From Nitrosopumilus sp. (GTDB lineage Archaea > Thermoproteota > Nitrososphaeria > Nitrososphaerales > Nitrosopumilaceae): DNA of 64,000 bases. The translations under genes were made by a program, and so were the position numbers. Numbering within the stretch: the stretch's first letter is position 1; each line of letters begins with the position of its first letter. The stretch spans positions 224,001-288,000 of the forward strand of contig OZ241857.1 in NCBI GenBank assembly GCA_965203315.1. The letters are read 5' to 3'. Under the pieces are notes generated by a model that had not been told where the DNA came from, did no database searches, and saw only the letters and a list, made by a program, of their open reading frames with translations. This document shows positions 2,657 through 24,569 of the stretch, in pieces.

Positions 2657-3683
2657 TTGATGGATTTGATATCTCTTCTTGAGATGAGAAATGATGGGTA
2701 TGCAATAATGAAATATTTGGAATCTCATAGTTCAGACAAGATCGTTTGTAAATTTTGTCAGTGCGATCAATACCATTACATGAAAAACAGAGATCGGTTA
2801 CGTTGTAAATTATGCAAAAAAGATTTCAGACCGTTTAACAAATCCAGATTTTCGTCACTCAAAATCTCATATTCAAAATGGCTGGTACTTGTCAAATTGT
2901 TTGAACTAGCTGTATCTGCAAGAGTTGCTGCAAAACAAGCAAGATTGTCTTACAATACGACACTCAAATCTTTTGATATTTTCAGGAGCGTGATTCTAAT
3001 GCAACTAAATGACGAATATCGAACATTAAAGGGCAAAATCGAAGCAGATGAGTCGTATTTTGGGGGTAAACGTAAAGGAAAACGAGGCCGCGGCGCCGGA
3101 AATAAGACTATCGTTTTTGGCATATTGCAGAGAGGTGGCAAGGTACGTGTTGACATTGTACCAGACGTCACAGCTAAAACTCTGCTTGAATCAACGATCA
3201 AGAAAGTAAAGAAGGGCAGCATGATAGGTTCTTTTAACTTAACGGGGGGTAAGATTAAGTTGTAGGTATTTCAAGAAACGCACTGTATGCAACTTAAAAC
3301 AGCAAAATCTACAATGGGTGTTCTAACCATTTTTCATGACTTGTAAAATTTTTAGAGAATGTTGCGTGAAAACTATCGACCCCCCGTTAAGTTAAAAGAA
3401 CCGCATGATATACACGGACAAGTGGAAAGGGTATGACACCTTGATCTTTCATGGATATGATCGAGAATCAGTTAATCATCAAAAGATCTTCGCAAAAGGC
3501 GATGTTCACATCAATGGAATGGAAGGGTTCTGGGGCTTTGCTAAATTGAACTTGGCAAAGTATCGAGGTGTGAGTTCAAAGAAATTCTTACTGTATCTCA
3601 AGGAGATGGAGTGGCGATACAATAACCGAGAATGCGATCTGTTTGATTTATTGGTACAATACATGCTTAGGGGCTCGAAATGA
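2657..3683 (+). pseudogene. IS1595 (ISXO2-like) transposase split by a MITE
   Basis: Zn ribbon CxxC..CxxC, EADESYFGG, IYTD.W.GY, HINGMEGFW and E.EWRYN motifs; removing the MITE restores the frame. Confidence 0.9.
3227..3402. mobile_element. MITE family A (~176 bp)
   Basis: TIR ggttcttttaacttaacggggg; 8-bp TSD gcatgata. Confidence 0.9.
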
Positions 3684-6666: not shown

Positions 6667-7083
6667 TCATAAAATATCAATTCGTCTTCAAGACGGATTA
6701 TATTTTCTTTTTCTACTAGATGTAGTAGGTATGTGTATAGACGTACAAGGATGTTCAATCTCTGGTGTTTTAAACACGATACACTTTTAGTGCATGTTCA
6801 TTCTTGACACGTTCTATTCACAATCCATTCAACTTGTTGATGACTGGTGATTTGCTCTTTTAGATGTGGAGCCCAGTCGTTACATATACCATAAGATGTA
6901 GAACAATAGCAAGATGTGTGGATCGTATGCACACAATCAAAGTTTATCTCCTGTTGCCTGAACTAGAGTATTGTCCAACACTGCTCAATAGTATTGACAT
7001 ACTATAGTGACAAGATAAATTAATTTCAGTATCAACTATTTTTGACATCATAAGTTATGAATTAATGTGTTCTAGACATTACA

Positions 7084-7860
7084 ATGGCATCAAAAAAGAG
7101 ATCTGTCAATACTTCAAAGACATCTAAATCGCCCAGACGATGGTCTGGATCACAGAGAAAAATACTCAAGAAGGGTCTTAAGAAAAGAAAACACCAACAC
7201 ATACGACACAAAGTCATAGCTCTCAAGATGATCATAGTCGATGGCTGTACAGTAGCACTTGCTGCAAAATCTGTTGGGGTAACAGAACGTACAGTATACA
7301 ATTGGCTCAATCTGTTTAGCGAAAAGGCTCTTTTTGGGCTGGAAGACAAGGGAGGTCGTGGAAGAAAACCCAAGATACCTGACGAAACATATGAGCAAAT
7401 CCTAGACACTCAAGAAAGAACAACACCTAGAGACATGTACAAGTTACTTTTAGACGAGACAGGTGTAAGACAACACTTTGATACGATAAGAAAGAGGATG
7501 AAAAAGTTAGGGTGGTCAAGGAAACGTTCACAAACGGCATACAGAAATCGAGCTAAACCTCCAGAGATCAAAGCATTCCGTAAAAGGGTACTGTCCATGT
7601 ATGGACATCTCAAGAAGAAAGGTTGGAAACTGTTTGCAATGGACGAGACAATCTTGACGTTAGAAACCAAGAACGGTGCTAAATTCTGGACCAAAATAGG
7701 CAGGCCTGTATATGCTACCTCAAAGGGGTCACGTGATAAAGTGATCGTAATGGGGGCAATAGGTCAAGGTAGAGTGCAATACTTTGAGATAGTAGAGAGT
7801 ACAAACAAGGCATGTTTCTTGGAGTTTCTGAAAAACCTGTACAAACGCTTTCAAAAAGTG
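7084..7860 (+). pseudogene. IS630 transposase, N-terminal part
   Basis: HTH ERTVYNW, GRGRKPK and AMDET motifs; continues in frame at 12236. Confidence 0.88.
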
Positions 7861-7866
7861 GTAAGA

Positions 7867-9205
7867 TATTATCCATGTGAATAGCTTATAAAGATTTACT
7901 CTGATTCACGACTATTGTGCATAGCATACGCTAGGGATGTGTTCCCATGTAAAGGACTGCGAACATATATCCATTCGAGTGGTTAACTCACTATCATTCT
8001 TCGTCCATTCGTCAAAATCTGTACATTTAGGTCGCCGAGTGATATCTCAAATATCTTCCGTACGTTAATGATTTCGACTACAATGTGTGACATAATCATC
8101 CCTATCTATAAGCATATGGTACATCAATCGTAGTAGTTTGGAGGCAGTTGCAACAGTTGCTTTGCTTACCGCGCGTCTCTTTTTAATTCTGTTATGAAAT
8201 TTTGTAATGTAACTATGGGGCTCACATTTTATGTGTACATGAACTGCTTCGGTCAATGCCCATCTAAGCATTTTATCACCTTTCCTCGTTATATGTCCAT
8301 GATTTTGTTTACCAGCTGAATTACGAACAGATGGTACTATTCCTGCATACGAACATATCTTACGAACAGTTGGGAATCTCTTGACATCTCCAATACTAGA
8401 TATTACAACAAGTGCAACAAAGTTTCCAACTCCGGGAATCGTCTTTAACAACTGTGCATCTTGTGATCTCTTTACCTCCTCACGCATTTTAATATCCAAT
8501 TGTCTAATCATTTCTTCATGGCAAGTTATCATATCTAGATAGTTGTCTATTCTATAATCCTCAAGTTTCTTCAATTCCTCTCTAAATGACTTGCTAAAAC
8601 TTGAACCAGGTATTTTAATCCCATATTGCAGTAATATCCCATGTATGAGATTCTTGTATTTTGTTCTACTCTTTACAATTACATCCCTATGTCGAACCAA
8701 CTGTTTTAATTTAACAGTGTATTCACTAGGAACAAAACAAGGCGAGATATAATTTCCTCTTAAAAGATCTGCCAGTGTCCATGCATCCACCTTGTCTGTC
8801 TTTTTCTTTGATTCGGCAATAGCCTTTGTTTGATATGGATTCGATAGTACTACATCAAATCCCAATTCATCTGTCAAGTATCTATACAGCCAATACCATA
8901 CTGACGATGACTCCATCACACAACGTGTATTGAGTGGTGTAAATTGTGCAAAGAATTTTTTGAGACTGTCATGATCTGTAGCAACACGCTCATTGAGTAT
9001 ACGCTTGCCATCCTGATCCATTGCTGCAATTTGCAGAAACCTCTTGTGTGCATCTATTCCGATATAGATCATCTTGTTTTTCTTTTTTAGATGGGTAATC
9101 TGTTCGTTTGCATTTTCTCTTTTAGATCGCTTTACAGGTGATCGCTTGGATCGACTCACATACCTTCTATCATCTGAATGTACTCTGATCGGCTTCTTCA
9201 CATAT
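7867..9205 (-). mobile_element. IS110/IS1111-type element, copy 1
   Basis: Near-identical inverted copy of 10883-12221; sub-terminal IRs atgtgaa(g/t)..agc; no flanking TSD. Confidence 0.9.
8065..9072 (-). CDS. IS110-family DEDD recombinase (likely start MIYIGID)
   Basis: IGIDAHK, VMES, KTDKVDA, IPGVG and SYAGIVP...S motifs. Confidence 0.92.
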   Translation of the reverse strand: MIYIGIDAHKRFLQIAAMDQDGKRILNERVATDHDSLKKFFAQFTPLNTRCVMESSSVWYWLYRYLTDELGFDVVLSNPYQTKAIAESKKKTDKVDAWTLADLLRGNYISPCFVPSEYTVKLKQLVRHRDVIVKSRTKYKNLIHGILLQYGIKIPGSSFSKSFREELKKLEDYRIDNYLDMITCHEEMIRQLDIKMREEVKRSQDAQLLKTIPGVGNFVALVVISSIGDVKRFPTVRKICSYAGIVPSVRNSAGKQNHGHITRKGDKMLRWALTEAVHVHIKCEPHSYITKFHNRIKKRRAVSKATVATASKLLRLMYHMLIDRDDYVTHCSRNH

Positions 9206-9299
9206 GGTTAGGTCAAGAAATGTAGGTCAAGAAATGTAAACTAAAAGGACAACTTTATGCGATATCCTAACTTAAACACCGCCTTTACCAACTAGAGTC

Positions 9300-10880
9300 A
9301 TGTCTAAGATTCTTGCGTACCAAGAGCAGATAGCCACTCTAAAGGCAGAGAAACAAGCAATGGCTAAGGAGATGACACAGCTAAAGAATGCCAAGAAAGA
9401 GAGTGACGCAGCAGTCGAATCTCTTCAAACACAACTAGCACAAAAGAGCAAGAACATGCTAAAGGTGTACAAGATTTTGATTACTGCACTGCTAGGACTC
9501 CAAGTATCACCTAATGCAATAGTTGCATGCATCACTGCGTTTAAGAAAGTGATTAACATTATTGAACGTGAAGAAAATTTATCCAAGACCAAGATTCGTA
9601 ACACCAAAAAGAAGATAGATGACAAACAAGAAAAGATTAAAGCTCAAACAGAACAGGCCAAAGAGAAAGAGAAACTAGGAGAGATTTCTAATAATCCTAA
9701 TACTCCACAATCTCGAAAACCAAAATCGGGTACAAAAAAAGTAAAACTAGTAACCGTACCAAAACCGGTAGGACGACCAAAGGGATATGATGGAATCACA
9801 CACGATATATCTGCAGACGAGATCGTACCACATAAAAAAGAACAATGTGATGATTGTGGAAGTCAAGATATGACAAACGTGTTCGCTGGACACACAATAT
9901 CTATGGATTTAGAGTGCAATATCAAAGTCATAATGCATAACGGATACAAATATGCCTGCAATTGTTGTGGCAGTGCAGGTAACACGCTAGATAACATACC
10001 AGACGTATTAAACAATACAATGCTAGGCGTGAATTTAGGCTGTATGGCGACTATAATGAGAGAGTGTGGCAGCAGTATAAAGTCAATAACTACATCTTTA
10101 CAGTGTTTGGATCCACGCATCTCTCACAACATGGTAACTGGAGCAATAAACGAGGTTGGCGACAGACTCAAAAAAGAAGCGGACAAGATTGCAGAACGCA
10201 ACCAAAAGTCAAGATATACACACATGGACGAGACATCACTATCTCTTTTAGCAGCATTGGGATGGGTTTGGGTGTTGGTAGGTGATTACGGTACGCAATT
10301 TATGATAGGACCATCACGTGGAAAGAAATTCCTAAAAGAGAATTTTGGAAAATATGTCTACATACCACTCGTATGTGATGGATATTCGGTGTATTTTTTG
10401 TTTAAAATACGGCAGCGGTGTTGGGCGCACGTATTGCGACACGCGGAAAGTGCAGTGTGTGATGTACGTACATTAATGATGTTTCGGAGGTTGCATGCAC
10501 TATTTGAGATTGCCACTCGACTACAAGCAAAGGATCCCAATTGCGTAGACCTATATCTCAAATATGCGGTAGATGATCTCATACGCGAGACGTTGCGGCT
10601 TGCAGCTGCATACAAAAAGATGGATATCAAATTTGGTACTCATCTAGAGAATGCTGCACATGAACTGTACACATTCGTGACACATCCGGGCATGGAGCCA
10701 ACAAACAATCGGGCAGAACGTGCTCTGAGAAGGCTCGTGCTATTCCGCAAGACGTGTCAACATGTCGTATCTGAGAAAGGTAGACAACGATTGAGTTCAA
10801 TCTTTACATGTATAACAACATGGAGGCAACAAGGACTCAATCCATACGAAGAAATGCTAAGAGTTGTGCGTGAGACCTAA
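9300..10880 (+). CDS. IS66-family transposase
   Basis: Coiled-coil N-terminus, Zn finger, HMDET, DGY..Y, RQRCWAH and PTNNRAERALR motifs. Confidence 0.92.
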   Translation: MSKILAYQEQIATLKAEKQAMAKEMTQLKNAKKESDAAVESLQTQLAQKSKNMLKVYKILITALLGLQVSPNAIVACITAFKKVINIIEREENLSKTKIRNTKKKIDDKQEKIKAQTEQAKEKEKLGEISNNPNTPQSRKPKSGTKKVKLVTVPKPVGRPKGYDGITHDISADEIVPHKKEQCDDCGSQDMTNVFAGHTISMDLECNIKVIMHNGYKYACNCCGSAGNTLDNIPDVLNNTMLGVNLGCMATIMRECGSSIKSITTSLQCLDPRISHNMVTGAINEVGDRLKKEADKIAERNQKSRYTHMDETSLSLLAALGWVWVLVGDYGTQFMIGPSRGKKFLKENFGKYVYIPLVCDGYSVYFLFKIRQRCWAHVLRHAESAVCDVRTLMMFRRLHALFEIATRLQAKDPNCVDLYLKYAVDDLIRETLRLAAAYKKMDIKFGTHLENAAHELYTFVTHPGMEPTNNRAERALRRLVLFRKTCQHVVSEKGRQRLSSIFTCITTWRQQGLNPYEEMLRVVRET

Positions 10881-11015
10881 CCATATGTGAAGAAGCCGAT
10901 CAGAGTACATTCAGATGATAGAAGGCATGTGAGTCGATCCAAGCGATCACCTGTAAAGCGATCTAAAAGAGAAAATGCAAACGAACAGATTACCCATCTA
11001 AAAAAGAAAAACAAG

Positions 11016-12023
11016 ATGATCTATATCGGAATAGATGCACACAAGAGGTTTCTGCAAATTGCAGCAATGGATCAGGATGGCAAGCGTATACTCAATGAGC
11101 GTGTTGCTACAGATCATGACAGTCTCAAAAAATTCTTTGCACAATTTACACCACTCAATACACGTTGTGTGATGGAGTCATCATCAGTATGGTATTGGTT
11201 GTATAGATACTTGACAGATGAATTGGGATTTGATGTAGTACTATCGAATCCATATCAAACAAAGGCTATTGCCGAATCAAAGAAAAAGACAGACAAGGTG
11301 GATGCATGGACACTGGCAGATCTTTTAAGAGGAAATTATATCTCGCCTTGTTTTGTTCCTAGTGAATACACTGTTAAATTAAAACAGTTGGTTCGACATA
11401 GGGATGTAATTGTAAAGAGTAGAACAAAATACAAGAATCTCATACATGGGATATTACTGCAATATGGGATTAAAATACCTGGTTCAAGTTTTAGCAAGTC
11501 ATTTAGAGAGGAATTGAAGAAACTTGAGGATTATAGAATAGACAACTATCTAGATATGATAACTTGCCATGAAGAAATGATTAGACAGTTGGATATTAAA
11601 ATGCGTGAGGAAGTAAAGAAATCACAAGATGCGCAGCTGTTAAAGACAATTCCCGGAGTTGGAAATTTTGTTGCACTTGTTGTAATATCTAGTATTGGAG
11701 ATGTCAAGAGATTTCCAACTGTTCGTAAGATATGTTCGTATGCAGGAATAGTACCATCTGTTCGTAATTCAGCTGGTAAACAAAATCATGGACATATAAC
11801 GAGGAAAGGTGATAAAATGCTTAGATGGGCATTGACCGAAGCAGTTCATGTACACATAAAATGTGAGCCCCATAGTTACATTACAAAATTTCATAACAGA
11901 ATTAAAAAGAGACGCGCGGTAAGCAAAGCAACTGTTGCAACTGCCTCCAAACTACTACGATTGATGTACCATATGCTTATAGATAGGGATGATTATGTCA
12001 CACATTGTAGTCGAAATCATTAA
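11016..12023 (+). CDS. IS110-family DEDD recombinase
   Basis: Same DEDD and catalytic Ser-loop motifs; differs from copy 1 by a few substitutions. Confidence 0.92.
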   Translation: MIYIGIDAHKRFLQIAAMDQDGKRILNERVATDHDSLKKFFAQFTPLNTRCVMESSSVWYWLYRYLTDELGFDVVLSNPYQTKAIAESKKKTDKVDAWTLADLLRGNYISPCFVPSEYTVKLKQLVRHRDVIVKSRTKYKNLIHGILLQYGIKIPGSSFSKSFREELKKLEDYRIDNYLDMITCHEEMIRQLDIKMREEVKKSQDAQLLKTIPGVGNFVALVVISSIGDVKRFPTVRKICSYAGIVPSVRNSAGKQNHGHITRKGDKMLRWALTEAVHVHIKCEPHSYITKFHNRIKKRRAVSKATVATASKLLRLMYHMLIDRDDYVTHCSRNH

Positions 12024-12210
12024 CGTACGGAAGATATTTGAGATATCACTCGGCGACCTAAATGTACAGATTTTGACGAATGGACGAAGAATGATAGTGA
12101 GTTAACCACTCGAATGGATATATGTTCGCAGTCCTTTACATGGGAACACATCCCTAGCGTATGCTATGCACAATAGTCGTGAATCAGAGTAAATCTTTAT
12201 AAGCTATTCA
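12024..12210 (+). ncRNA. Candidate bridge/seek RNA region (3' non-coding end of the IS110)
   Basis: ~200-bp non-coding end, apparently identical in both copies; IS1111-type elements encode the guide RNA 3' of the ORF; short matches to the target seen; structure not computed. Confidence 0.5.
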
Positions 12211-12235
12211 CATGGATAATATCATACAAAAAGTG

Positions 12236-12505
12236 ATACTGCTGCTCGATGGTCCCAAGACGCATAAAGGAGAAGAGGTCGAAGAGTTCATCAAGGGCAA
12301 GGATATCAAACTCGTCTATCTGCCAAGAGCAATACCCGAGTTCAATCCAATCGAAGAGTATTGGCATCAACTCAAACGAGAGATCAAAGTTGGAGTATAC
12401 TATGAGACAGTTGAAGAGATGGAAGCTGCTGTGCGTGACTATCTAAAAAAGACACGACATACGCTCGATCTTTTGGCATTCATAAAAAGAGAGATCGTTG
12501 CATAA
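12236..12505 (+). pseudogene. IS630 transposase, C-terminal part
   Basis: LLLDG..TH and LP...PEFNPIE.YW motifs (DDE_3). Confidence 0.88.
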
Positions 12506-12509
12506 TGCG

Positions 12510-12752
12510 TCAAACTCGTGTTAGCGGCTTTCTTCCTCTACCGGGTTTGTCTTCTAGTCCCGCAATTCCTTCTCGCTTGTATCGTCTTAGCCAATTATAC
12601 ACGGTACGTTCCGTCATGCCAACATGCCTTGCCGTACGTGATATTGTGTTTTTATCAATTAGAACCATCTTTACACCAAAGATTCTAGTTCGTATGTGCG
12701 CGTACTTTTTATTTTTAAGAGCTAGAAGAAGATTTTTGTGTTTTGTACTCAA
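12510..12752 (-). CDS. Stand-alone HTH protein paralogous to the IS630 transposase N-terminus
   Basis: HIR..I...KM..D.....A..VG.TERTVYNWL......G..GLEDK.GRGRKP shared with the 7084 ORF. Confidence 0.7.
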   Translation of the reverse strand: MSTKHKNLLLALKNKKYAHIRTRIFGVKMVLIDKNTISRTARHVGMTERTVYNWLRRYKREGIAGLEDKPGRGRKPLTRV

Positions 12753-13395
12753 GATATCACTAAAAATTATATCAATGCGTGAATTTTAGTGTTTTAATGG
12801 ACATAACAGTGAAATTAATTCGTCATGTCACTATAGATATGACCAGTAATTGATGACCTGGATGATATATGGCATTGTACAACATTGCGTAAATGTTTCA
12901 ACTTGTATGCCCTTGCGATATATTCATAATCTATATGCGTCACTGATACTGTACAATAGTTTATGATGAGTTAGGCATGACCGAACCAGAATGCAGGTAT
13001 CTGTCTATTCAAGTTATTAGTAGATTGGTGAATTGGTGGTAAAGTTTGATACCCTGTGTTGTTCACTATTTTGAGTCGATTATGCAGCTGAAGAGTGACT
13101 TGAAAAGTGTTGTGTGATATCAACCCCACACAATCTAGTCGACATACATCTAGTTGGTAATGTTGGTGGACATCGACTGACGTTGCTCAAAAGACAACTA
13201 GACTGTGTATAAAAAACACCATACAGCTGATCTACAAACAGATTGTATCCATCATCTCTAGTATGGAATCACGTTGTTCAAATATTCATGTGTGTTGATC
13301 TGTTGCAGATCAAGTATATCTGTATGGTCACACTGTCAATCTGCTCGATCTTTATCGAGTCAACGATTTCAAGAATGTTCGAGATGATGGACTAT

Positions 13396-22870: not shown

Positions 22871-24569
22871 GTATGAGGTTAGGTCTCACGCACAACTTTT
22901 AGGAGTGTATCATAGACGTTGAGACCTTGTTGCTCCCATGTTGTTACACATGTAAAGATATTGCCAACTCGTCGTTTACTCTCCTCAGATACAATACGTT
23001 GAGTTACCTTGCGGAATAGCACCATTGATCGTATAGCTCGCTCTGCTCTGTTGTTTGTGTATTCCATACCATAGTATAGCACAAATGTGTATAGATCATC
23101 TGCAGCATTAGCTAAATGAACTCCAAATTTACGACAAGATTCGTTGTCTAGTTTCTTGTACTCTGCTGCAAGTGATAATGTCTTTTGCACTAGATCATCT
23201 ACTCTGTATTTTAGGTATATGTCCACATGATTGGGATTGTCCACCTGTAGTGCTTTTGCAATTTCAAGTAGTTTCTGCAATCTTTTGTACATTAGTACAG
23301 TATGTACGTCACACATTGTATCTTTTGCATTTCGCAGTATGTGCGCCCAACAACGTTGCCGTACATTGAATAGTTTGTACACGACATATCCATCCGACAC
23401 GAGTGGTATCAGAATATACTTTTTGAACGTTTTTTCTAGAAAATCTTTTGTACGCTCTGGCGATATGATGAATTGCGTACCATAATCGCCGACAAGAACC
23501 CAGACCCATCCCAATTTCGCAGCAAGGGACATCGACGTCTCATCCATGTAGATTACCTTGGATTTTAGGTTCATTCTCTCTATTTTTTTGACATATTTGT
23601 CTAGTTTATCGGCAATCGTGTCTATTGCCCCCGTTACCATCTTTTTAGATATACACGGGTCTAGGCATTGAAGAGTACTAGTTATTGTTCTGATACTACA
23701 GCCATTCTTTCTCATTATGGTTGCAATCACGCCTAGAATTGGGCACAACATTGTGTTGTGTAGTATGTCTGGGATGCTGTCGAATGTATCGCCTGATGCG
23801 CCACAATCTCTACAGTTGTAAAAGTATCCGATATGGAGTATGTGCAATATTATGATCTGTATGTCAATCGTTCTCTTTTGTCTAGACCTCTTGTTGTCAA
23901 CATGCTTACTGCCACATCCATCACACTTTTCTTTTTTATGATGTCTTGTCTTGTCTGTTTTTATGTTGTCGGAAACTCCTTTGTGACCCTTGTCTTGTCC
24001 TGCTTTTTTCCATTCGCTTTTAGATTTTCTTGTACCCTTTTTTACATGATCTGGTTGTTTTGATGAGGGTACGTTAGAATTGTCGAGCTGCTTGCGTCTC
24101 GTTTCTTTGTTCTTGGCCTGTGCTGTTTGTACCTCTATCTTTTCTTTTTTACCCTCTATCTTTTTTCTGGTGTTACGAATCTTGGTCTGTGATAGTTGTT
24201 GACCACGTTCTATAATTTTGATCATCCTTTGGAATACATTAAAACAATCATTGATTGAATTTGGAGATACTTGGAGTCCCATAATTGTAGCAAGTAAAAT
24301 CTCGTACAGTTTCATATTCATTCTCTTCTGCTTTGCAACTTGTTTTTGTAGACTCGTAATGGTCTCTTGTTGTTGTTCGATGGTATCATTTTGCTGCTTG
24401 ACAGTATCCTCTAGATCTGCTATCTTGGCAGATGTCTCCCTATCTTTTTTGGTAGTCTTTTGTCTCGCGATCTGTCTAGACATTGTCATAATTGGTAATG
24501 TTTGGATTTAGCCTAGATTATCTAGAAAAGTTGTCCCTTTTGGTAGATCTTTTAAACCTAACCTCGTAC
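22871..24569 (-). mobile_element. IS66-family (single-ORF) element with intact TIRs
   Basis: TIR gtatgaggttaggt / acctaacctcgtac; 8-bp TSD caaaaaag. Confidence 0.92.
22879..24489 (-). CDS. IS66-family transposase
   Basis: YMDET, DGY..Y, RQRCWAH and TNNRAERAIR motifs; paralogue of 9300. Confidence 0.92.
   Translation of the reverse strand: MTMSRQIARQKTTKKDRETSAKIADLEDTVKQQNDTIEQQQETITSLQKQVAKQKRMNMKLYEILLATIMGLQVSPNSINDCFNVFQRMIKIIERGQQLSQTKIRNTRKKIEGKKEKIEVQTAQAKNKETRRKQLDNSNVPSSKQPDHVKKGTRKSKSEWKKAGQDKGHKGVSDNIKTDKTRHHKKEKCDGCGSKHVDNKRSRQKRTIDIQIIILHILHIGYFYNCRDCGASGDTFDSIPDILHNTMLCPILGVIATIMRKNGCSIRTITSTLQCLDPCISKKMVTGAIDTIADKLDKYVKKIERMNLKSKVIYMDETSMSLAAKLGWVWVLVGDYGTQFIISPERTKDFLEKTFKKYILIPLVSDGYVVYKLFNVRQRCWAHILRNAKDTMCDVHTVLMYKRLQKLLEIAKALQVDNPNHVDIYLKYRVDDLVQKTLSLAAEYKKLDNESCRKFGVHLANAADDLYTFVLYYGMEYTNNRAERAIRSMVLFRKVTQRIVSEESKRRVGNIFTCVTTWEQQGLNVYDTLLKVVRET

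Follow-up and report, generated by a model that had tools for sequence, protein, structure and literature searches.

An IS1111-type element of the IS110 family has very probably inserted independently into both end repeats of one IS66-family element (IS66-I), guided by a two-loop seekRNA/bridge RNA and with recombination at a TA core. The observations behind this reading are the anatomy of the locus, the element boundaries, the matches between guides and targets and their co-variation, a conserved fold, and near-identical copies at several sites. Positions are those of the window, i.e. the whole stretch of 64,000 nucleotides that was analysed, unless another contig is named.

Nested structure of the locus

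The elements of the locus and the repeats that delimit them are as follows.

7002..12836, plus strand, IS630-like host element, interrupted by the IS66 insertion
7853..7860, no strand, left 8-bp target-site duplication of IS66-I, aaaaagtg (direct reading)
7861..12227, plus strand, IS66-I, single-ORF IS66-family element, 1689 bp without its two inserts
7870..9208, minus strand, left IS1111-type copy, 1339 bp, with its transposase at 8065-9072 (minus strand), in the left IS66 end repeat
9209..9236, no strand, 14 nt from the inner part of the left IS66 end repeat, duplicated in tandem; the duplicated stretch includes, on the other strand, the half-site GACCTA
10880..12218, plus strand, right IS1111-type copy, 1339 bp, with its transposase at 11016-12023, in the right IS66 end repeat
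12228..12235, no strand, right 8-bp target-site duplication of IS66-I, aaaaagtg (direct reading)

The overall structure described in an earlier note on this DNA, IS110-type elements within the ends of an IS66, is real, but the nesting goes one level deeper, as the IS66 itself lies within an IS630-like element. The latter is bounded by inverted repeats at 7002-7028 and 12810-12836, and the two parts of its interrupted DDE_3 transposase ORF lie at 7084-7884 and 12212-12505 (HTH and DDE_3 halves in Pfam). Four intact copies (98-99% identity) occur at other loci of the genome, and the uninterrupted form, with 7851 joined to 12227, was found in contigs of 4 public runs.

The outer ends are those of an IS66, as had been claimed: the aaaaagtg repeat lies directly outside GTAAGA... 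and ...CATAC. The ORF at 9300-10880 codes for an IS66-family transposase (PF03050; NF033517 at 186.8 bits, cut-off 180), and the DDE_Tnp_IS66 transposase and the 8-bp target duplication that mark the family are thus both present. The 15-bp end repeats of IS66-I agree at 14 of 15 positions, and their tips differ (TCATAC vs TCTTAC). The canonical accessory genes tnpA and tnpB are absent between the IS66-I ends, the transposase being the sole family-matching ORF of at least 60 aa in the orientation of the element; we take this single-ORF layout to fit the ISBst12-like subgroup. A second genomic copy of IS66-I (C1 1214463-1216124) is 98.5% identical and has its own 8-bp duplication, CTTTTTTG; the 14-nt sequence duplicated at 9209-9236 is present only once in it.

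The inverted arms of the locus (7861-9214 and 10874-12227) are 1354 nt each and 99% complementary. Long, near-identical inverted repeats of this kind are difficult to assemble, and public contigs break at the repeat boundaries, so that the locus is not bridged by them. Even so, it is highly improbable that the duplication is an assembly artefact, or that the region is a composite transposon with an IS110-type copy at either end: 12 of the 1354 positions differ between the arms, the left copy has an identical counterpart on contig C6 whereas the right copy is a different variant, the 8-bp duplication flanks the IS66 tips and not the IS110 tips, and the same junction recurs at one end of the second IS66-I copy. 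The slight difference between the two copies that had been pointed out amounts to 11 sites within the IS1111-type element.

The IS1111-type element

The ORFs in the two arms are IS110-family transposases, in agreement with the earlier reading, with matches to PF01548 (E 2.7e-29), PF02371 (E 9.1e-24) and NF033542, 'IS110 family RNA-guided transposase' (265.5 bits, cut-off 140). Both domains by which the family is recognised, the N-terminal DEDD/RuvC-like and the C-terminal Transposase_20 domain, were found. The assignment to the IS1111 type also holds. The transposase has 335 aa (330-350 aa in the IS1111 group), and the longer non-coding region lies downstream of the gene, with 195 nt after the stop codon (12024-12218) vs 136 nt before the ATG at 11016. 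The C-terminal motif, read by eye, is G-I-V-P-S-V-R-N-S-A, with 'SA' instead of the SG/TG of GL-P----S(t)G; an occasional TA variant of this motif is mentioned in the accessible text of PMC11187229. The termini carry three short features.

10885..10891, plus strand, left subterminal inverted repeat ATGTGAA (direct reading; conserved in all subfamilies)
12196..12202, plus strand, outward-pointing TATA-like box TTTATAA, with its start 23 nt before the right tip
12207..12213, plus strand, right subterminal inverted repeat TTCACAT (direct reading; conserved in all subfamilies)

The subterminal repeats are perfect over 7 bp and stand at the short end of the published IS1111 range, given as 7-17 bp in the consulted sections of PMC11208160 and as usually 11-13 bp in those of PMC11187229. 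The latter source also gives extensions of 7 bp and 3 bp beyond the repeats; here they measure 7 nt (TAACCAT) and 3 nt (GGA) when the shared TA is assigned to the left end, or 5 and 5 nt when it is assigned to the right end, 10 nt in total in both cases. The TATA-like box has the same offset in 16 of 16 distinct right ends, 11 of which fit the pattern while 5 read CTTATAA by eye. It may be an archaeal promoter that reads over the circle junction into the transposase gene, which suggests an archaeal TATA-type promoter in place of the bacterial junction promoter.

Boundaries and the native IS66 end

The boundary was set from the empty sites of sister subfamilies B and D, for which uninterrupted sites are available (at least 14 MITE ends for subfamily B; 3 exact and 1 near-exact for subfamily D). 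The element runs ACCATATG...CATGGATA, and the core common to element and target is TA; the core of IS621 is CT. The shared TA of the left copy is at 7870-7871 and is repeated at 9209-9210; that of the right copy is at 10878-10879 and is repeated at 12217-12218, and with this TA assigned to its left end the element extends from 10878 to 12216.

By the same empty sites, the boundaries first proposed (10883-12221 and 7867-9205) are 3 nt off and have to be replaced by 10880-12218 and 7870-9208; the left tip of the IS110-type element is 'ACC', and the target includes the 3 nt that follow ...GGATA. The alternative boundary with an AT core was not supported. Excision of 10883-12221 does give a string identical to the IS66 end at 22871-22885, but it is not the correct removal, the boundary being 3 nt further left; consequently, the native IS66 ends are of the GTAAGATATTAGGTC type and not gtaagaggttaggtc, the native end reading GACCTAATATC(A/T)TAC.

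An empty end of the 9300-type IS66 was found, since the second IS66-I copy has an uninterrupted GACCTAATATCATAC at its other end; this form is also present in contigs of 4 runs from 3 studies. The abundant, related IS66 of the 22871 type (IS66-II), in contrast to what had been assumed, is not the same target: its ends differ from the guides by 3 mismatches, and 23 of 23 are empty. Comparison of occupied with empty sites (subfamilies A, B and D) shows a shared TA only and no target duplication, and the orientation is fixed in all copies. The two insertions in IS66-I indeed have, as had been noticed, the same position and the same outward reading relative to the end repeat, the left copy being inserted 9 nt from the IS66-I tip.

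Predicted seekRNA/bridge RNA and its guides

The non-coding region of each copy contains a predicted guide RNA, whose guide strands were located in the right copy.

7949..8077, minus strand, predicted seekRNA/bridge RNA, left copy (covariance model, 141 bits)
12011..12139, plus strand, predicted seekRNA/bridge RNA, right copy (covariance model, 141 bits)
12031..12037, plus strand, 5' target guide AAGATAT (four-subfamily alignment; guide-flank test)
12055..12061, plus strand, 3' target guide GACCTAA, equal to the left flank, the TA core and the next A
12091..12095, plus strand, candidate second donor guide ATGAT (by eye; relatives have ATGGT, which is reverse-complementary to the left tip ACCAT)
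12114..12120, plus strand, donor guide ATGGATA, identical to the right tip of the element

The RNA is predicted to form two stem-closed loops, with a hairpin capping each. Over 21 distinct sequences, 95.2% of the cells were paired and 18 of 25 pairs were changed on both sides, in an alignment that was fitted to the structure of the model and so favours that same structure; none of 500 shuffles reached these values, and slid controls were 30-44% paired. The fold of the single sequence was no more stable than that of shuffled sequences (z = +1.01; 172 of 200 shuffles at least as stable), and no Rfam family matched the predicted RNA.

In the left IS66 end repeat, the 7 nt that adjoin the TA core on its right are the reverse complement of AAGATAT; the right end repeat has one mismatch to this guide. 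The guides follow in the order AAGATAT, GACCTAA and jointly cover 13 contiguous nt of the target, with an overlap of 2. This order agrees with that reported for IS1111-type seekRNAs, in which the complement of the top strand lies 5' of the complement of the bottom strand and the matches overlap (PMC11187229, sections consulted). The donor guide becomes ATAGATA in relatives precisely where the right tip is ATAGATA; the candidate second donor guide has, in the present genome, one mismatch to the left tip.

The closest relatives of the transposase are in Nitrosopumilaceae/Thaumarchaeota assemblies, which, together with the TBP and topoisomerase VI-A genes found beside other copies of the element, bears out the archaeal origin proposed for this DNA. 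The Nitrosopumilaceae relatives retain both the fold and the guide-flank matches. The latter were scored for 22 insertions (14 guide sets) from this genome and related assemblies, with 432 non-cognate pairs as control. The longest exact match between guide and right flank had a mean of 4.95 nt in cognate vs 2.14 nt in non-cognate pairs, and reached at least 5 nt in 13 of 22 cognate vs 3 of 432 non-cognate pairs. Left-flank identity averaged 3.36 of 5 vs 1.37, with values of at least 4 in 12 of 22 vs 18 of 432. Poor right-flank matches of only 1-3 nt were obtained for L018, L027, L017, L012:4609, L014 and L020.

Within the genome, the four subfamilies of the element carry GACCTAA, AAGTTAA, AAAATAA and TCACTAA at the same alignment columns, each identical to its own left flank, and in each of the four the 5' loop strand is the reverse complement of its own right flank. 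Were the site read directly by the transposase, with the short non-coding matches incidental, a fold with no thermodynamic signal of its own would be as expected. That explanation is nevertheless very unlikely: subfamilies with nearly the same ends and a conserved scaffold differ exactly at the two flank-matching loop strands, cognate and non-cognate pairs are clearly separated, and experiments have shown bacterial IS1111/IS110 members to depend on RNA (PMC11187229 and PMC11208160, in the portions available).

Copies, subfamilies and target sites

The genome contains 11 full-length or nearly full-length copies of the IS110-type element, in 4 subfamilies. Their four targets are the end repeat of the IS66, that of a MITE, the transposase gene of an IS5-like element and a site adjoining a repeat; at least three of these targets are located within other mobile elements. 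Occupied sites were found for every one of the four guide sets and identifiable empty targets for three. The left copy of the locus does not differ from the C6 copy, nor do the three subfamily-B copies differ among themselves, which speaks for recent activity. In a further copy (C1 673028-674383), 2 extra nt are present between the element tip and the flank, for which the guide model offers no explanation.

When the flanks of the copies were tabulated, all 6 subfamily-A copies were found at GAYCTA/TACCTA...ATATC-type sites. Three of the 6 are in IS66 ends, and the other three are in unique DNA, at look-alike sites with 1-2 mismatches beside ordinary genes (TBP gene, topoisomerase VI-A gene and a methylase region). 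The proposed RNA-guided targeting of IS66 ends is supported by the guides, which match the end repeat on its two strands and co-vary with the flanks, but not as an exclusive habit. The copies in unique DNA would also fit recognition of a generic motif of about 13 nt that occurs by chance in the IS66 end repeat, with no specialisation on IS66 and with the double hit reflecting two sites 1.7 kb apart. We consider this improbable. The three perfect 13-nt guide matches in the genome are all left ends of IS66-I type (2 occupied, 1 an empty relic), 3 of the 4 ends of the two full IS66-I copies are occupied, and subfamily B, too, occupies the end repeat of a MITE, where its distance of 8 nt from the tip is almost the same as in IS66-I. 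Empty sites within 1 mismatch of the 13-mer number five, including one perfect match.

A broader reading, which is doubtful, is that the lineage has radiated into guide variants specialised on separate mobile elements (IS66-I end, MITE end, IS5-like transposase gene), acting as selective parasites or, in effect, disablers, and that the abundant IS66-II (23 intact ends) has escaped the guides through three changes in its end repeat, in an RNA-guided arms race.

Proposed mechanism

RNA-guided insertion would proceed as follows. The non-coding region of about 195 nt after the DEDD transposase gene would encode a two-loop seekRNA/bridge RNA of about 130 nt, which is presumably expressed and binds the transposase. 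The 5' strand of the target loop (AAGAUAU) would pair with the top strand on the right side of the crossover, to which it is complementary, and the 3' strand (GACCUAA), identical to the top strand on the left side, would specify that side; between them they would span 13 contiguous nt of the IS66 end (GACCTAATATCTT), with an overlap at the core. One strand of the donor loop (AUGGAUA) repeats the right tip, and the other is near-complementary to the left tip. Recombination would take place at the TA common to the target and the joined element ends, would make no duplication and would fix the orientation, such that the transposase gene reads towards the IS66 tip. The donor would be a circular intermediate with the joint ...CATGGA-TA-ACCATATG..., over which transcription would be driven by the TATA-like box 23 nt from the right tip; no circle junction or excision joint was seen in the assembled contigs of public runs. 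With its end repeat split 9 nt from the tip, the IS66 may be disabled for transposition, in the view of the earlier note until the insert excises.

Relation to known systems

The arrangement resembles that of bacterial IS4321 and Tn21, in which an IS1111-type element with subterminal inverted repeats also occupies a fixed position and orientation in the end repeat of another element, without duplication. It differs in that the host there is a bacterial Tn3-family transposon, whereas here it is a single-ORF IS66-family element in an archaeal genome, in that both ends of one host copy are hit, and in that the guide RNA is read directly from the sequence. IS1383/IS1384 of Pseudomonas putida H (Muller, Lauf & Herrmann 2001, as far as accessible) is likewise a case of an IS110-family element that targets the inverted repeats of another IS, in a bacterium and with a different IS family as host. 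In view of these bacterial precedents the behaviour is less novel than the earlier note held; that an IS110-family element can be directed by RNA to another element's end repeats is, as a general principle, established for bacteria. In the literature searched, no archaeal description of an IS110-family element targeting the ends of another element was found, and the present case is a new archaeal example of this behaviour, probably under RNA guidance.

The ISEc11/ISXne4 seekRNA pair (Siddiquee et al. 2024, PMC11187229, consulted sections) shares the overlap of the two matches in the target and the natural retargeting of close relatives by changes confined to the two guide strands; here, by contrast, four guide sets coexist in one archaeal genome and are known from sequence alone. 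With the IS621 bridge RNA (Durrant et al. 2024, PMC11208160, likewise in part), the predicted RNA has in common the two loops, target and donor guides on both strands, a core dinucleotide shared by target and donor, and a recognised target of about 13-14 nt. IS621 is a member of the IS110 group, with the RNA upstream of the gene, whereas the element described here has its RNA downstream, a TA core and the opposite guide order.

If insertion into an end repeat truly disables the host, such elements would influence the choice of transposons able to spread in these genomes. This locus and its relatives extend RNA-guided elements of the IS1111 type, with their ends defined, TA as the core and the fold conserved, to ammonia-oxidising-type archaea, and the four guide sets on an almost unchanged scaffold in one genome are a clean, directly legible natural example of seekRNA/bridge-RNA retargeting.

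Nested elements at the locus

The locus was resolved as a three-level nest: an IS630-like element holds a single-ORF IS66-family element (IS66-I), and each end repeat of IS66-I holds one 1.34-kb IS110-family copy (PF01548 and PF02371; NF033542). Positions on contigs C1, C5 and C6 of the genome are given with the contig name; all others refer to the window, which covers C1 224001-288000.

Features of the nest
7002-7028 and 12810-12836: inverted repeats of the outermost, IS630-like element
7084-7884 and 12212-12505: HTH and DDE_3 transposase of the IS630-like element, split
7853-7860 and 12228-12235: 8-bp duplication aaaaagtg around IS66-I
7861-12227: IS66-I, within the IS630-like element
9300-10880: IS66-I transposase (PF03050; NF033517)

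Four uninterrupted copies of the IS630-like element were found elsewhere in the genome. The inverted arms described in the earlier note (1354 nt, 99% complementary) are formed by the two IS110-family copies, both oriented outward with the transposase toward the IS66 tips. A second IS66-I copy (C1 1214463-1216124, 98.5% identical), flanked by its own 8-bp duplication CTTTTTTG, holds a further IS110-family copy in its left end (C1 1216119). In the window, a 14-nt tandem duplication (9209-9236) of inner sequence from the left IS66-I end repeat abuts the inserted element and repeats the target half-site; the unit is single in the second IS66-I copy. The TAA stop codon of the IS66-I transposase (10878-10880) is located in the end repeat of the element itself, where it overlaps the TA core, and it is preserved upon insertion because the first nucleotide of the inserted element is A.

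Element boundaries and the native IS66-I end

The insertion of an IS1111-type element at the same site in both IS66 end repeats is real, and its boundaries need correction. Removal of 10883-12221 does recreate, as the earlier note had it, a string identical to the end of a related IS66 type (IS66-II, 22871-22885). The boundaries drawn there (10883-12221 and 7867-9205) were contradicted by the empty sites of two sister subfamilies, B and D (described below), and by the second IS66-I copy, one end of which is empty; the same sites ruled out an alternative boundary with a shared AT core. The B site is the end of a MITE of ~176 nt, of which at least 14 uninterrupted ends read ...GTTAAGTTAAAAGAACC (the MITE-end 14-mer has 45 exact occurrences in the genome), and occupied ends read ...AAGTTA-ACC[element]GGATA-AAAGAACC. 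The D site lies within a 5-copy element, the other copies of which carry the uninterrupted TCACTAGAATTAC (three exact, one with one mismatch). At both sites the element includes ACC, and the 3 nt that follow ...GGATA come from the target, which places the window copies at 10880-12218 and 7870-9208 (1339 bp each). The empty site has a single TA, and in the occupied one a TA borders the insert on either side, which leaves a 2-nt boundary ambiguity. A scheme with differing core dinucleotides (CC in the element, TA in the target), in which the GACCTAATATCATAC end was an excision footprint, was dropped because ACC belongs to the element at the B and D sites.

The native IS66-I end reads GACC-TA-ATATC(A/T)TAC. 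A check for empty IS66-I ends found an uninterrupted example at C1 1214455-1214469, the right end of the second copy. The string was also found in two relics of IS66-I-like left ends (C1 899054 and C1 1558908), and it recurs in contigs from four public runs (three studies). The predicted circle junction would consist of the right tip ...CATGGA, one TA and the left tip ACCATATG...; no circle-junction or excision joint was reported in the assembled contigs of the four runs, which gives no evidence either way.

Copies in the genome

One arm was compared with the whole genome by blastn, which gave 11 full-length or near-full-length copies and seven fragments. The copies sort into four subfamilies.

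Subfamilies of the element and the 3' block of their non-coding region
A: 6 copies; 98-100% identity; GACCTAA; the two window copies, C1 673028-674383, C1 288110-289462, C1 1216119-1217440 and C6 6082-7432
B: 3 copies; 93% identity; AAGTTAA
C: 1 copy; 71.5% identity; AAAATAA
D: 1 copy; 67% identity; TCACTAA

As first noticed, the two window copies are slightly different, with 11 differing sites inside the element. The left one is identical to the C6 copy (0 differences) and has one difference from the C1 673028 copy; the right one is a distinct variant, and the three B copies are mutually identical. These comparisons point to separate insertions of recent date rather than to one misassembled copy; no contig of the four public runs spanned the whole locus. 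Seven of the 11 right-versus-left differences fall at 11588-11714, where several agree with subfamily B or with the copy at C1 288110, a pattern that suggests recombination between copies. The copy in the second IS66-I (L005, C1 1216119-1217440) is truncated by ~29 nt at its left end, the loss beginning exactly at the junction, and is therefore without the left subterminal repeat; its joint (9219 to 10912, opposite strands) was also present in contigs of the four public runs.

Predicted target guides in the non-coding region

The region after the stop codon was aligned across the four subfamilies and consists of a conserved scaffold with two short differing blocks. In each subfamily the 3' block is identical to its own left flank followed by TA and A, and the 5' block is the reverse complement of its own right flank; in subfamily A the 5' block AAGATAT matches ATATCTT at 7/7 positions. 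The A blocks jointly span an unbroken 13-nt stretch in the left end of IS66-I, with a 2-nt overlap at the core. IS1111-type seekRNAs are reported to have the same block order (PMC11187229), with the top-strand complement first and overlapping matches.

A covariance model built on the four subfamily sequences gave 27 matches, in the window, in sister copies and at loci of Nitrosopumilaceae and Thaumarchaeota assemblies; the relative loci were fetched via their transposases, which are at most 52% identical. Over 21 distinct rows of an alignment that was fitted to the model, 95.2% of cells pair in the predicted fold and 18 of 25 pairs are changed on both sides. These pairing values were reached by none of 500 shuffles, and slid controls were 30-44% paired. 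A single-sequence fold recovered the same helices, its stability giving no signal over shuffles (z = +1.01), and Rfam gave no match for 7800-12300 at E up to 1. One strand of the donor loop repeats the right tip of the element, and the change from ATGGATA to ATAGATA is found in precisely the relatives that have ATAGATA as their right tip. The other strand is ATGGT in relatives, which is reverse-complementary to the left tip ACCAT; its counterpart in this genome, ATGAT, has one mismatch that coincides with the left-tip position varying between ACC and AAC.

For the guide-flank test, 22 of the 27 matches were used; three were excluded for want of a recognisable left end and two for a target loop truncated in the alignment. 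The 22 insertions represent 14 distinct guide sets and are therefore not all independent. Cognate pairs (22) were compared with 432 non-cognate pairs.

Guide-flank matches in cognate and non-cognate pairs
Mean longest exact match, 5' guide to right flank: cognate 4.95 nt; non-cognate 2.14 nt
5' guide to right flank, match of at least 5 nt: cognate 13/22; non-cognate 3/432
Mean left-flank identity out of 5: cognate 3.36; non-cognate 1.37
Left-flank identity of at least 4: cognate 12/22; non-cognate 18/432

Weak cases were L018 (1 nt), L027 (2 nt) and L017, L012:4609, L014 and L020 (3 nt each). The sequence evidence gives good support to the reading in which a guide RNA chooses the target.

Target specificity

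Perfect 13-nt matches to the A guides were found three times, all in IS66-I-type left ends, two of them occupied and one an empty relic. The right end of IS66-I in the window has one mismatch (TCAT) to the guides and is occupied; the second copy has an identical right end, which is empty. IS66-II, ~66% identical to IS66-I at the DNA level, differs from the A guides at three positions, and its ends were empty in 23 of 23 cases by our own count (13 right-type and 10 left-type). The view that the element targets IS66 ends held in part when the flanks of the A copies were tabulated: three are in IS66 ends and three elsewhere, with single-copy inner flanks. The latter adjoin ordinary genes (TBP; topoisomerase VI-A; a hypothetical gene and a methylase, by Pfam), at sites one or two positions off the 13-mer, one with 2 extra nt; a tblastn search for IS66 features beside them turned up nothing but an unrelated IS66-family gene at a distance of 2.7 kb from one copy. 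Perfect matches are thus IS66-I ends, yet three copies lie elsewhere, and the IS66-I end repeat is therefore the cognate target of subfamily A, other sites also being used. In the copy at C1 673028-674383, which lies ~400 nt from the TBP gene, ...GGATA is separated from the ATATCTTAC flank by 2 additional nt (GC).

A third group of ends, GACCTAA(C/T)GTC(A/G)TAC after a shared inner sequence, was uninterrupted wherever seen (C1 9326, 428447, 1072098 and 1123492; C5 68443 and 288853; C6 40964), and may belong to another IS66-like family or its MITEs.

The B site lies in the perfect 24-nt end repeat of the MITE, 8 nt from the tip (example at 3227-3402, ~176 nt); the family has dozens of copies, and B occupies only three ends. 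Insertions of D lie within the DDE_Tnp_4 transposase ORF of a 5-copy IS (C1 1072967-1073995, L004, and C1 1544174-1545515, L006), the other four copies of which have an uninterrupted 13-mer matching the D guides (three exactly, one with one mismatch). The C site is beside a partial copy of a 222-nt repeat, and no empty site for this subfamily was found in the genome.

Relation to known systems

RNA-guided target choice is established for IS110/IS1111 elements (PMC11187229; PMC11208160), and the former paper describes IS1111-type elements as abundant in bacteria and archaea. Bacterial precedents for hitting the end repeats of another element are IS4321/IS5075, which target Tn21-family ends, and IS1383, which targets the inverted repeats of IS1384. 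Full-text literature searches gave no description of an IS110-family element at IS66 ends in archaea; archaeal IS1111-type elements and their targets may already be listed in the supplementary target tables that accompany the seekRNA and bridge-RNA papers. What is new here is the archaeal instance, end-repeat targeting being already known from bacteria. The element may reasonably be regarded as a putative hyperparasite that would immobilise IS66.

Other features of the element

A motif, ATGCAAAC(A/G)AACAGATTA(C/G), lies upstream of the transposase start (10960-10995) and also in the left ends of the loci L010-L027, being kept from this genome to relatives at ~45-50% protein identity. Residues 178-259 of P0001 (C-terminal transposase) matched the NCBIfam model of the TIGR-Tas RNA-guided endonuclease weakly and below threshold (36.6 bits, cut-off 100), which agrees with a relationship already published for these RNA-binding domains.

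Each of the 16 distinct right ends has a (T/C)TTATAA-type box that begins 23 nt short of the right tip; 11 boxes fit the search pattern, and the other five, with the offset unchanged, were read by eye as CTTATAA. The archaeal TATA box lies ~26 nt upstream of the start, and the right-end box would therefore start transcripts just past the tip. We infer from this spacing that the TATA-like box could be a promoter; in the circle it would transcribe into the left end and the transposase gene, and in the integrated state outward into the flank.
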